A stretch of DNA of 5,921 nucleotides from a virus (IMGVR_UViG_2778261088_000007), one strand, 5' to 3'. Shown: positions 837 to 5,921, numbered from the stretch's first letter. Numbers and translations are program-made. The notes: generated from the letters alone by a model not told the origin.

Positions 837-1412
837 CTACGGCAGTGCTGGCCATTCAATATCCTGTGCAGTTGACGTATCAACACGGTTCAGCAATACC
901 CGATACTTTTTCCATGCTTCCAGCAACGAGATTTCTTCCTCCGTTGCAATTTCCAGATCTGCAGCATCCTGAAGCGGCGCAATATGCTCACTGGCTACCT
1001 GCATCAGGTTGTTTTTTGTTTCTTCCGCCTCCCGGATCCGGAACAGTTTTTCTGCTTCCGTATCCTTCACCCAGGCTGTGCCGTTCCACTTCTGAAACTC
1101 CCCTTCCGGCGATAACCAGGTAACATTTTTCGGTAACGGACCGAGTTCAGAAATAAATAACGCGTCGCCGGAAGCCACGTCATAAACCGTTTTACCCCGA
1201 TGATCTTCAACGAGATGCCACGATGACTCATCACTGTTGAAAACAGCCACGAAGCCAGCCGGAATATCTGGCGGTGCAATATCGGTACTGTTTGCTGGCA
1301 GACCTGTATGAGGCGGAATATATGCATCACCTTCACCAATAAATTCATTAGTTCCGGCCAGCAGATTATAAATTGTTATGGTCCGTGGTTGTTCACTCAT
1401 TCTGAATGCCAT
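837..1412 (-). CDS. tfaR: Tail fiber assembly protein / chaperone (lambda Tfa-like), 191 aa
   Basis: Minus-strand ORF with ATG at 1410-1412 (plus-strand cat) and TAG at 837-839. The N-terminus [54 protein letters not shown] is recognisable as the lambda Tfa / Rac TfaR family. Its start overlaps the stf stop in a TAATG arrangement, and a GAGG-like Shine-Dalgarno sits inside the last stf codons (plus about 1421-1426), consistent with translational coupling. Confidence 0.9.
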
Positions 1413-4400
1413 TATGCAAGCCTCACAATATAGTTAAATGCGATGTTTTTGACGGTGTTTTCCGCGTTACCAGCAGCGTTAACGGTGATGGTGTGTCCAT
1501 GTGAGCCAATCGCAACGGAGTGCGTATGAGCACCAATACCGACAGTATGTGCGTGTGCACCTGCGCTTGCAGCAGTACCCGATACAGAGTGCGTATGAGC
1601 GCCTGCAGAAGAAGTGTTAACACTGTATTTAGAATAATCAGGTGATCCACTTCCCGGAGCACCACTGGAACCACCTGAAACAAATGTCATCGAATGGGTA
1701 TGTGCACCGGCTGAAGCAGCCGTACCGCTAACACTATGGGTATGTGCACCAGTGTTATTCGTGGATTTAGTGCCGTAATCAAACGATGATGTGGTTTTCG
1801 TCCCCAAATCCGTACTGGATGCGCTGGCGCTGTGGGTGTGCGATTTAATGCCGTCCTGTTCCTGAGACAATACGGCACGACCACTGGCGGGCTTGCCCTT
1901 AATCGTCCAGCCACGCATATCAGGAATAACGCCTGACGGATAAGCCACTGCAAGTTTCGGGTATGCAGATTTGTCAAAAGTCTGCCCCTGCATCAGGGCA
2001 TAGCCAGACGGAACGGTATCTGATGGCCACGGGATTGGTGCGCCGACTGGGTAGCTTTCTGGTGGAAGATTTTTCGAGGTATAAACTTCTGCCCAGTCAT
2101 CCTCAAAACCATAACCGTCTCTTGAAGAACGGTAGAACAGACCACCATTTCTGTAATGCGCCTTCATCTGCAGGGTCCGGCAACTTCCGACTCCGGTATA
2201 GAAGTTAACCAGAATATAGCTGTCGCCAGAGCGAGTGACATTGTAAGCGCCTGATTCGGCATTCCATGGAACGCCACCATCCGCATCGGCATATGTATCC
2301 GTTGCCCTTCTGGCAAAAGCAGCCACATGCGCGGCGGTTAAAGTAATATCTTTGGAACCATCAAACTCAACACCAGAAACCCGTCTTGGCGTTTGCAGCT
2401 TTGTTGCTGTTAATGCATTACCGTTCAGACTTGCGGACAGTTTGGTTCCAATAACCAGTTCGCCGGTTGCGTTATCAATAGCAAACGGTCTTAATGTATT
2501 CCAGCCACCATAAACATCACCTTGATTGGTAAGCAGCAGGTAAGTTTTAGCGCCATCATTACGCCATAATGCACCATACTCTCCACCTATCATTCGAATC
2601 TGATTACCACCACGCGCTACAATTTCGTCTGTGGCAAAAAGTTTTTTGCACGACAAGTTATCGTTAACGATTAACGAATGAGACTCATAAAAACCACGCC
2701 CACTCTTAAAATCAAGGATAACGTCCGCCGCGATACATTCAGTCGCTGGATTTGTTGCCCCAAACTTATAGGTCGTATCATTAACAACGAGATCAGCACC
2801 AGGTGCGGATATTGACAGGCCATCTTCGATAAACGCAAAAACAGGGAAAGCAGCGCCATCAACATAGAACACAGAGCGCAAATCATCGCCCTTATTACTC
2901 ATCATTATTGAGTGGATGGCTCGTTCATTGTTTTGATATTGCCAGAACATTCCATAAGCATAACGCCCCCTGTCAGTCCAGCCACCAGGCATAACAAATC
3001 CGTTAAACTCGCAGTTATTCATCGGATCGCCTGCGGTTCGCGTTGCCGTGGTGATAATGACCCTTGATGCCAGTTCGCTTACTGAGCCAGCAGAACGCAT
3101 AACAACAACAGGGTAATATTTTCCAGATGTTGCACCTGCAGGAGCGTTAACCCGCACATAACGCATACCACGCTTATCAGCAAAGTCTGTTTTACTGACC
3201 GCGTTAATGTTGTTCAGGAAGCGTCCCTTATCGGGTATATCAGTGCCGTTCTGGTCTTTCTGCAGACGTTTCTCTGCATTGTCATAGGCTGATTTTACTG
3301 CCTTTGGCGTTGCCGCCAGCGTTTCAGACGTACTGTTGGTCGCACTGCTGAGCTGTACTATCCCCTTTTTCGTCGTGCTCGCATCCTCAAGCGCCACGGC
3401 GGATGCAATATCCTCTGCCCGTTTTGCTGCTGTCTCGGCGCGCGTTGCCGCGGATTCCGCCGTACTTTTGCTCTGAGCTGCCGCCGTCGCACTGCCAGCT
3501 GCCTCTGTCGCCTTCGTGGATGCCGTCGTGGCGCTGCCCTTCGCTGCTGACGCCTGTCTGGTCGCCTCATCTTTTGAAGCAGACGCCGATGATGCCGATG
3601 ACGCCGCCGAACTGGCTGACGATGCGGCAGCCGTTTTTGAGGATTCTGCGCTGGTTTCCGACGCTTTCGCGTTCGTTTCGGATGTCTTCGCTGCGGAAGC
3701 TGACCTCGCTGCTACCGTGGCCTGTTCAGTGGCTTCGCCAGCCTTCGTTGTGGCTGTTGAAGCGGATGATGCGGCGCTTTCTGCCGACTTTCCGGCAGCG
3801 GTGGCACTGGCTGAGGCCTGCCCGGCATTTGTTGACGCGGCGCTGGCAGATGAGGCAGCCGCTGTTTTTGAGTCTGCTGCTGCGGAGGCACTCTGTCCCG
3901 CTGCCGTCTCAGAAGACTTTGCGTTCGTCTCGGACGTTTTTGCCGCCTTCGCGGAAGTTCCTGCCGCTGTTGCCGAGGAGGCTGCACGACTGGCGCTCGA
4001 GGCTGCGCTCGTTTCTGATGATTTTGCCGCCTCTTTTGAAGCCGACGCATCCCTGGCTGAGGTGGCAGCTTCTGACGCTTTCGTGGTCGCGGTGGATGCA
4101 GAAGTGGCGGCTGATTGTTGTGACGCTGCCGCATTCGTTTCTGACGTTTTCGCCGCACCGGCACTGGTAGCCGCCGCGCTTTTTGAGGACTCTGCAGCGG
4201 CAGCACTTTTTGAGGCTTCAGTGGCCTTTGTTGATGCCGTTCCTGCGCTGGAAGACGCTGACTGAGCCGACGACGCGGCCTGTCCGGCTGACGTGCTGGC
4301 TGCACGTGCTGAATCTGCAGCATCAGTCGCACGGGTTGCCGCCTCACTGGCAGATGTGCCGGCATCACTGGCTGACTTCTTTGCGGCTGCCGTGTTCTGT

Positions 4401-4762
4401 GCCACCACGGACGCGTTACGCGCCACCTCTTCCACCATCAGTTCAAAACGACGCAGTGCCTCCGGACGGGCATCATCCTCCGTCATGGCACCGAGAAAAT
4501 CATTCAGCGTACCGGGTTGAGAATCTTCATACACGGTGATGGTCCCGGCATGTGACGGCGGGAATCCCTCCACCAACAGAATAACGCTGTACTGACCGTA
4601 CTCAACGTCCATGCTGTAACGCCCGGCTTCATCCGGATTTTCTGAGGCCAGCGTGTTCACCACCACAGTGGTACTGTTACGTTTTGCTTTCAGCTGGATT
4701 GTGCAGTTCTGTACCGGTTTTCCTGTGCCGTCTTTCAGTACACCTGAAATCTTTACTGCCAT
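1412..4762 (-). CDS. stfR: Side tail fiber protein (lambda Stf-like, Rac StfR-like), about 1116 aa from ATG 4760-4762; the ORF track begins at an in-frame GTG at 4766-4768
   Basis: Single uninterrupted 3.35-kb minus-strand ORF ending TAA at 1412-1414. From the ATG the N-terminus reads [26 protein letters not shown], matching the lambda Stf N-terminus from memory; the track's MNM start uses the GTG two codons upstream, so the ATG is the more likely start. A GGGGTGA Shine-Dalgarno lies about 5 nt upstream of the ATG. The C-terminus [22 protein letters not shown] is the conserved Stf/gp37-type fiber tip. Size and domain order resemble StfR of prophage Rac. Confidence 0.9.
1490..1843 (-). repeat. 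His-x-His repeat region at the stf C-terminal tip (seven HxH motifs), putative metal-binding needle domain
   Basis: Residues about 976-1093 contain SHTHS, AHTHS (three times), AHAHT, AHTHS and SHGHT. The 20-aa block [20 protein letters not shown] / [20 protein letters not shown] is duplicated, with matching nucleotide repeats (gagtgcgtatgagc at about 1519 and 1587; gggtatgtgcacc at about 1697 and 1737). Confidence 0.6.
3419..4411 (-). repeat. Ala/Ser/Thr-rich low-complexity shaft region of stf with three imperfect tandem units, each containing AAKTSETNA
   Basis: Protein residues about 120-450 are almost entirely A/S/T/K/E. The nucleotide motif gcattcgtttctgacgttttcgccgc and close variants recur at plus 4131-4156, 3921-3947 and 3669-3696 (spacing about 210 and 252 bp), each encoding AAKTSETNA on the minus strand. 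This compositional bias also creates the long spurious ORFs in other frames across the region. Confidence 0.6.
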
Positions 4763-4772
4763 ATTCACCCCA

Positions 4773-4801
4773 CAAAAAAGCCCGCCTGAACCGGCGGGCT
4801 G
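4773..4801 (-). terminator. Rho-independent terminator on the minus strand, immediately upstream of the stf ribosome-binding site
   Basis: Minus-strand sequence gcccgcc-ggttca-ggcgggc forms a 7-bp GC-rich stem with a 6-nt loop (plus 4780-4799), followed directly by TTTTTT (plus A-run 4774-4779) and then GTGGGGTGAATATG (SD plus stf start). There is no T-run on the plus-strand side, so it is oriented with the tail-fiber transcription direction. Confidence 0.55.
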
Positions 4802-4824
4802 TCATAACACTGTGTTACCTGGCT

Positions 4825-5241
4825 ATCCGTGACCTGAGCCGTCTGCAGGTTCAGTGAGTCCCCCGGCATCAGGTGCGGCACTTTTGCGCCTCCCAGACGG
4901 ACCGGTGCTGCGGCGTAATACGCGGCAATTTCACCAATCCAGCCGGTCAGCTTGTCCCGCTGCTCCTTACTGTTCGCGCCCAGAATAAAATCCATCGCTG
5001 ACTGCGTATCCAGCTCACTCTCAATGGTGGCGGCATACATCGCCTTCACAATGGCGCTCTGCAGCTGCGTGTTCTGCAGCGTGTCGAGCATCTTCATCTG
5101 CTCCATCACGCTGTAAAACACATTTGCACCGCGGGTCTGCCCGTCCTCCACGGGTTCAAAAACGTGAATGAACGAGGCGCGCCCGCCGGGTAACTCACGG
5201 GGTATCCATGTCCATTTCTGCGGCATCCAGCCAGGATATCC
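4825..5241 (-). pseudogene. Internal fragment of a lambda gpB-like portal protein gene, lacking its N-terminal and C-terminal portions
   Basis: The 153-aa minus-strand ORF (4765-5226) reads MPQKWTWIPRELPGGRASFIHVFEPVEDGQTRGANVFYSVMEQMKMLDTLQNTQLQSAIVKAMYAATIESELDTQSAMDFILGANS...GWIGEIAAYYAAAPVRLGGAKVPHLMPGDSLNLQTAQ, which from memory is collinear with the middle of lambda portal gpB; its initiating Met is an internal Met of the portal. Portal-frame similarity starts at GYPGWM (plus about 5224-5241) and is lost after QTAQ-VTD (plus about 4825-4836). The ORF then runs 20-odd codons through the terminator hairpin and stops at TGA overlapping the stf start region. Confidence 0.7.
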
Positions 5242-5921
5242 GTACCGATTTCGGTAAGGTAAACCCCGTTTTTGTTTCGCTTACGAGGCATGCTGGCCAC
5301 CGGCTTACCGTAGACGGATGCCCCTTTAATGGGGATCACCCGGAACAGCCCATGCTTTTTCGAGCGTTCATACACAATGGTCGGGTCAATCCCGCCAGTA
5401 TCCCAGCAGATACGGGATATCGACATTTCTGCACCATTCCGGCGGGTATAGGTTTTATTGATGGCCTCATCCACACGCAGCAGCGTCTGTTCATCGTCGT
5501 GGCGGCCCATAATAATCTGCCGATCAATCAGCCAGCTTTCCTCACCCGGCCCCCATCCCCATACGCGCATTTCGTAGCGGTCCAGCTGGGAGTCGATACC
5601 GGCGGTCAGGTAAGCCACACGGTCAGGAACGGGCGCTGAATAATGCTCTTTCCGCTCTGCCATCACTTCAGCATCCGGACGTTCACCGATTTTCGCTTCC
5701 CACGTCTCACCGAGCGTGGTGTTCACGAAGGTTTTACGTTTTCCCGTATCCCCTTTCGTCTTCATCCAGTCTTTGACAATCTGCACCCAGGTGGTGAACG
5801 GACTGTACGCCGTCCAGATGTGAAAGGTCACACTGTCAGGCGGTTCAATCTCTTCACCGGATGACGAAAACCAGAGAATGCCATCACGGGTCCAGATCCC
5901 GGTCTTTTCGCAGATATAACG
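5238..5921 (-). pseudogene. Internal fragment of a lambda gpA-like terminase large subunit gene, 3'-truncated and extending beyond the window edge
   Basis: The minus-strand frame is open from the window edge (..RYICEKTGIWTRDGILWFSSSGEEIEPPDS-VTFHIWTAYSPFTTWVQIVKDWMKTKGDTGKRKTFVNTTLGETWEAKIGERPDAEVMAERKEHYSAPVPDRVAYLTAGIDSQLDRYEMRVWGWGPGEESWLIDRQIIMGRHDDEQTLLRVDEAINKTYTRRNGAEMSISRICWDTGGIDPTIVYERSKKHGLFRVIPIKGASVYGKPVASMPRKRNKNGVYLTEIGTD), matching lambda gpA from memory. After LTEIGTD (D codon at plus 5238-5240) the frame runs into portal-derived DNA out of frame and terminates at 5106 after a nonsense tail (ILAGCRRNGHGYPVSYPAG...). The track's 5831 start is only an internal GTG. Confidence 0.7.

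Follow-up and report, generated by a model that had tools for sequence, protein, structure and literature searches.

The window analysed here, 5,921 bp long, is the whole of draft-assembly contig NNXM01000107.1 of GCA_002486265.1 and ends inside gpA on one side and 148 nt past pinQ on the other. Read along the minus strand, it carries a fragment of the terminase gene gpA, a TA dinucleotide, a fragment of the portal gene gpB, a second TA, the lom-stf spacer, stf and tfaQ, followed by the pinQ locus on the plus strand (Table 1). To map its breakpoints, we aligned it by blastn with two references, phage mEp332 and the complete prophage at the Qin locus of E. coli HCP30S3_I2 (NZ_CM149861.1; locus L010), whose gene set is nohA, A, W, B, C, D, E, FI, FII, Z, U, V, G, T, H, M, L, K, I, J, lom, stf, tfa and pinQ. 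The three blocks of the window are collinear with both references, and identity to HCP30S3_I2 is 97.8% for the gpA block, 98.6% for the gpB block and 99.92% from the stf spacer to pinQ. The window thereby follows the order Nu1-A-W-B-...-J-lom-stf-tfa of lambda, mEp332 and HCP30S3_I2, at 97.8-99.9% over the three retained blocks, but differs from this lambda-type order in that stretches of 1,199 bp and 15,760 bp are absent. The original prediction, a prophage remnant with two deletion scars, could thus be confirmed to the base against both references, and the segments at 4825-5241 and 5238-5921 proved by blastn and Pfam to be internal fragments of portal and terminase genes. That the remnant has "kept only the fibre module" holds for the virion genes and can be judged no further, as the contig ends inside gpA.

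Table 1. Features of the 5,921-bp window and related joint sites (window positions unless a locus is named).
Feature	Position	Strand	Basis or remark
pinQ, intact small serine recombinase gene, 591 nt, 196 aa	149..739	+	Pfam Resolvase and HTH_7
tfaQ, intact tail fibre assembly gene, 576 nt, 191 aa	837..1412	-	Pfam Caudo_TAP; annotated in relatives
stf, intact side tail fibre gene, 3351 nt, 1116 aa	1412..4762	-	Pfam, blastn
Native lom-stf spacer	4769..4823	-	Palindrome, intrinsic terminator, stf ribosome-binding site
Junction 2, TA crossover, mid-portal to base 3 nt past lom stop	4824..4825		Alignment against mEp332 and L010
gpB (gene B) fragment, codons about 211-348 of 533	4826..5236	-	Pfam and blastn
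A' read-through, out of frame in portal DNA (ILAGCRRNGH...CFTA, stop)	5106..5237	-	ORF 5106..5831, frame analysis
Junction 1, gpA-gpB TA crossover	5237..5238		Three-way alignment; coordinates against L010
gpA (gene A) fragment, codons 292-519 of 641	5238..5921	-	Pfam and blastn
Shared lom-side TA	4824-4825; L003:9739; L011:7003; L132:4609; L133, L134 (reverse strand)
TA joint sites on L010 (examples)	26234-26237; 30830-30831; 42409-42410

The 4.8 kb of stf-tfaQ-pinQ are 98-99.9% identical to loci in which tfaQ and pinQ lie beside ydfK-ynfT-ydfJ', and the best E. coli matches have the Qin layout nohA-A'...stf-tfaQ-pinQ-ydfK-ynfT-ydfJ', with nohA, the lysis genes and the Q gene upstream in related Qin alleles. 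Judged by these sequence comparisons, the window very probably comes from the attR-proximal end of a cryptic lambdoid prophage of the Qin type in E. coli, situated at the ydfJ locus in related strains. This assignment draws mainly on the match of A' and B' to Qin alleles, since the pinR-tfaR-stfR block of Rac is 99% identical, and relatives supply its place in the chromosome and the remainder of the prophage because the window is an entire draft contig.

The genes stf, tfaQ and pinQ are all open and match in length the annotated genes of related strains, stf being equally long in strains 1303, HCP30S3_I2 and PSS-12 and 99.9% identical to that of HCP30S3_I2. Its product contains the Pfam domains phage_tail_N, Gp34_trimer, Collar and Phage_fiber, and its Ala/Ser-rich part (window 3500-4400) is encoded by degenerate repeats with a 21-nt period; because the low-complexity filter masks these repeats, BLAST coverage against E. 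coli matches is below 100%. The 3' half of tfaQ holds a full-length match (221 bits, 871-1069, minus strand) to Rfam IS009 (RF02111), a candidate small RNA family. Convergent with tfaQ lies pinQ, which is 100% identical to pinQ of HCP30S3_I2 and 1303 and whose product is about equally far from its PDB relatives Gin and gamma-delta resolvase. Upstream of stf, the spacer contains the palindrome TAACACAGTGTTA at 4817..4805 and an intrinsic terminator with its stem at 4800..4779 and a T run, and an identical spacer is found 3' of lom in 123 IMG/VR prophage loci. The terminator is followed, as had been predicted, by the start of stf (at 4762). With the lom terminator ahead of it and no promoter of its own within the window, stf would depend entirely on antiterminated late transcription reading in from upstream.

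The gpA block (5921..5237) corresponds to positions 20857-21541 of mEp332 gene A at 98.8% DNA identity (blastn), matches the A' of the Qin alleles in strains 1303 and GmM062 at 100% over the part in common, and on 5921..5238 matches the gpA endonuclease domain (Pfam GpA_nuclease, PF20454, E 7e-54, profile 2-210 of 294). Bounded 5' by the contig end and 3' by junction 1, the fragment loses homology at codon 519 of the 641-aa ORF. The predicted break at LTEIGTD with a frameshift into the portal sequence, placed at 5230-5245, was located precisely on the TA at 5238-5237, beyond which the A' frame continues through portal DNA in the wrong register for 43 codons until it meets a stop at 5106. The parental sequences are GGTACGGA-TA-ccgcg on the gpA side and gacggc-TA-TCCTGG on the portal side, flanked by the imperfect homology ACGG(A/C)TA, and relative to HCP30S3_I2 the deletion removed 1,199 bp comprising the C-terminus of A, W and the N-terminus of B.

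Exact matches to junction 1 were absent from the GTDB species representatives and the JGI metagenomes. The Qin alleles of three complete genomes, LD39-1, 30COLEC and NCTC9066, use the same portal-side TA together with a gpA-side TA that lies 23 nt upstream, and since this portal-side TA is common to the window and the LD39-1 group, we conclude that junction 1 or a close precursor of it was inherited. The LD39-1-type joint (L002:8640-8680) is in frame and yields a terminase-portal fusion ORF; it could be a second TA-to-TA deletion that began at the older joint. PGAP annotates this fusion ORF as a single 2.3-kb portal pseudogene.

In place of a full-length portal ORF (533 aa), the window holds an internal piece whose block (5243..4824) aligns by blastn with mEp332 22734-23153 and L010 26231-26650, and Pfam Phage_portal_2 (PF05136, E 5e-24, profile 183-304 of 354) is recognised on 5241..4765. 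No record of the fused portal ORF was found. The end of portal homology, predicted near SLNLQTAQ at 4815-4845, lies three codons beyond that peptide on the TA at 4825-4824, and from window position 4825 onward the third block follows mEp332 38913 onward, beginning 3 nt past the lom stop codon. The parents of junction 2 read CACGGA-TA-acgg on the portal side and ctgat-TA-GCCAGG at the end of lom. Gene list and coordinates of HCP30S3_I2 bear out the prediction that the block from mid-portal to lom is missing and stf, tfa and pin are intact: the deletion amounts to 15,760 bp and took away the C-terminus of B and C, D, E, FI, FII, Z, U, V, G, T, H, M, L, K, I, J and lom. Seven nt from junction 2, at 4832, the portal sequence carries an A-to-T change (Asp to Val) that occurs in no relative examined and is the sole private change seen in the window; it might have arisen as the ends were joined.

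The evidence for junction 2 is a single contig, and the joint was encountered in none of 5,426 complete E. coli genomes and, as an exact match, in none of the GTDB species representatives or JGI metagenomes. The window being a complete 5.9-kb contig and junction 2 occurring in no other collection, the joint might be taken for a mis-assembly in a short draft contig with prophage repeats at its ends, but this is extremely improbable: a graph-based mis-join requires a shared k-mer and the overlap at junction 2 is 2 nt, five other joints at the same base are alike in form, two of them in finished genomes, and the collection lists the contig in 2 samples.

Very probably, then, a prophage with a complete lambda-like virion block lost that block in two steps. 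One step, the 1,199-bp deletion, left gpA codon 519 joined to gpB codon 211 in a different frame; the other, the 15,760-bp deletion, joined gpB codon 348 to the spacer just past lom, each crossover falling on a TA dinucleotide with little other homology. The alignments establish that the deletions occurred, where they broke and at which locus they lie. The observation adds another deletion allele to those of a well-known cryptic prophage; apart from the breakpoints at re-used TA sites, the deletions are ordinary prophage decay.

Comparison of the locus across strains revealed that each Qin allele has its own deletion breakpoints. In GmM062, A is joined to the inside of stf; in strain 1303, A is joined to E' and Z' to the lom-stf spacer; in LD39-1, 30COLEC and NCTC9066, A is joined to B and then B to mid-stf; in NWU_4, the portal N-terminus is fused to stf; and in K-12, nohA is joined to a C-terminal stfQ piece. 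A truncated stf is found in GmM062, LD39-1, NWU_4 and K-12, and pinQ and tfaQ are 98-100% identical in the Qin alleles of other strains. The Qin (Kim) prophage of K-12 (b1544-b1548: ydfK, pinQ, tfaQ, stfQ, nohA) has the gene order and orientation of the window and, like it, has had its virion genes deleted and retains a packaging remnant, stf, tfaQ and pinQ. In contrast to K-12, where nohA leads directly to the stfQ fragment, the window keeps 228 gpA codons, 138 gpB codons and a full-length stf.

The contrast between broken packaging genes and an intact stf had been read as a sign that the fibre module was either recently acquired or retained by selection, a reading that our comparisons do not uphold: the gpA fragment is undecayed, none of the differences from the closest stf-to-pinQ block is private to the window, and stf is truncated elsewhere. 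Over the whole 4,825-bp stretch (stf spacer through pinQ) there are 4 differences from the HCP30S3_I2 prophage, 0/4 of them private, and all four (in stf/tfa) are non-synonymous. The proposed dN/dS comparison of stf with its flanks returned values of 0.09-0.17 for stf (against diverged alleles) and 0-0.08 for the gpA fragment (against intact gpA genes, from which it differs almost entirely by synonymous changes), the portal fragment giving noisy values based on 1-6 synonymous changes. With its dN/dS near 0.02 (values of 0-0.08) the dead gpA fragment is no more decayed than stf, and the packaging genes were broken by the deletions alone. These values record life inside functional phages, and what has happened since the deletions amounts to too few changes for dN/dS to be informative on selection, including selection on stf.

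Selection on stf-tfaQ-pinQ could act if the module served as a host-range reservoir for lambdoid phages, or if PinQ or fibre-derived proteins took part in phage defence. Published work puts recombination between lambda and Qin stf/tfa DNA at about 2e-6 per phage (PMC3945230) and reports that PinQ of K-12 Qin blocks T2 through inversion of the e14 P segment (PMC12529663); stf also has the low dN/dS against diverged alleles given above. Low dN/dS, however, reflects a history in functional phages and is lower still in the dead gpA fragment, the four recent stf/tfa differences are all non-synonymous and shared with other alleles, the truncated stf genes of GmM062, LD39-1, NWU_4 and K-12 speak against maintenance, and the reported function of PinQ depends on pinQ and not on stf. 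Neither capture by lambda nor defence by PinQ requires an intact stf at Qin, and we regard selection on the module as quite unlikely. Use by another phage, as had been suggested, is plausible only in the general published sense of lambda capturing Qin stf/tfa DNA, and a tailocin is excluded at this locus: no tail gene is left, all of Z to J lying within the 15,760-bp deletion, and the window holds no such ORF.

An origin of the fibre module in another Qin or lambdoid allele, from which homologous recombination would recently have placed it on an older A'-B' remnant, is likewise unlikely, albeit in keeping with a mosaic of similarities: the portal fragment has its nearest match in LD39-1 (2 differences in 412 nt), the identity of stf-pinQ is 99.9% with HCP30S3_I2 and GmM062 but 98.8% with LD39-1, and that of gpA with HCP30S3_I2 is 97.8%. 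The window may indeed owe its arrangement to recombination between Qin alleles, but its portal DNA is joined straight to the native lom-stf spacer with a 2-nt overlap, as in a deletion joint and not a homologous exchange, and recombination within stf changes the allele and cannot create junction 2. We infer that stf, tfaQ and pinQ are intact because the deletions are recent and ended short of them, without special selection on the module. Recency is supported by the 4 non-private differences in 4,825 bp, the low dN/dS of the gpA fragment and the lack of junction 2 in the 5,426 complete genomes.

The position at which the larger deletion ended recurs. The TA just past lom (TAGCCAGG) is the right end of six independent deletions with six different left partners, namely mid-portal in the window, Z' in strain 1303, a small-terminase fragment in the Rac prophage of LD39-1, 30COLEC and NCTC9066, tail gene I' in the IMG/VR locus L133, a ydfU-proximal site in L134 and a TerB-region site in L132; the right end of junction 2 is, to the base, the one before TAGCCAGGTAACACAG in the five other joints. 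A seventh joint lies at the next TA, 8 nt to the right (L148:9232), and joints at the four positions beside the lom-side TA (two on each side) were not found. Every other copy of the lom-stf spacer in IMG/VR sits after lom, and 3' of the TA come a Dcm site (CCAGG), the palindrome and the lom terminator. The portal site GACGGC-TA-TCCTGG was involved in four events, as the right end in the window and LD39-1 and, 2 nt away, as the left end in NWU_4 and L126; further partners of this site were sought in IMG/VR and none appeared, 12/12 matches being native portal variants. A TA site in gene Z was used twice: it is joined to mid-lom in SCZE5-type strains (L149:2516-2567) and to the lom-stf spacer in 1303 (L003:9709-9771), and strain 1303 looks like SCZE5 after a further loss of the 499 bp of lom left there, again from TA to TA.

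Among 23 distinct mapped joints, a sample that is small, only partly independent and partly hand-picked, 14 have a TA crossover (3.2% expected by simulation) and the remaining 9 show ordinary microhomologies of 2-6 nt. When 16 parental TA sites were compared with the 1,298 TAs of the region, C was enriched at +2 (12/16, p = 9e-5) and at -4 (10/16, p = 7e-4), as was G at -2 and -3, giving a roughly dyad-symmetric context. Even with a sample so small and partly hand-picked, it is clear that the joint positions are non-random. A comparison of K-12 Rac with phage Rac-SA53, meant for the TA rule, met structural modules that are not homologous, and our literature search found no description of a lom-stf deletion hot spot.

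We tentatively raise the possibility, on balance a doubtful one, that a large proportion of deletions in E. coli lambdoid prophages arise by a site-preferring enzymatic process acting at TA in a CGGnTAnCCG-like context with re-used sites, and not by random microhomology. As to agents we can only speculate, the candidates being the resident serine recombinase of the PinQ/PinR type acting on TA-core pseudo-sites, or a nuclease that leaves ligatable TA cohesive ends.

Several better-known mechanisms were considered for the locus. Like the G segment of Mu with Gin, the C segment of P1 with Cin and the P segment of e14 with PinE, the window has a small serine recombinase gene beside fibre and fibre-assembly genes; unlike these switches it has neither a pix-like site nor an alternative fibre C-terminus, and pinQ is convergent with tfaQ. 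An inverted repeat, GATA[A/G]CCAGGTAACA, at 1111-1125 (inside tfaQ) and 4813-4827 (at junction 2) brackets stf and the first half of tfaQ, probably by chance. An invertible fibre segment was rejected, given that a synthetic inverted-junction query detected the inverted configuration in 0/5,426 genomes and that the window has no e14-type pix site with up to 3 mismatches. A classical transposon was also dismissed, as there is no IS at any junction and the stf-upstream end has no extended terminal inverted repeat anywhere to its right. Cutting of the EcoRII type at the CCWGG by the two main hot sites was discarded too, since its cut position would lose bases that are actually retained. Int-promoted deletions of lambda and IS-promoted adjacent deletions likewise have one exact, fixed end and one varying end, but at the joints described here the fixed end has no mobile element or att core, TA alone is shared, and some hot sites serve as left ends and others as right ends.

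The window provides no reason to hold that its fibre genes enjoy special preservation. It offers a dated snapshot in the sense that, with a complete prophage known at the same locus, a remnant this young still allows both scars to be read base by base, and the re-used TA breakpoints may be the sole feature worth following up. If prophage genes were indeed removed at specific, re-used TA sites and not by random slippage, it would change how rates of prophage domestication, and modules described as "retained", are read.
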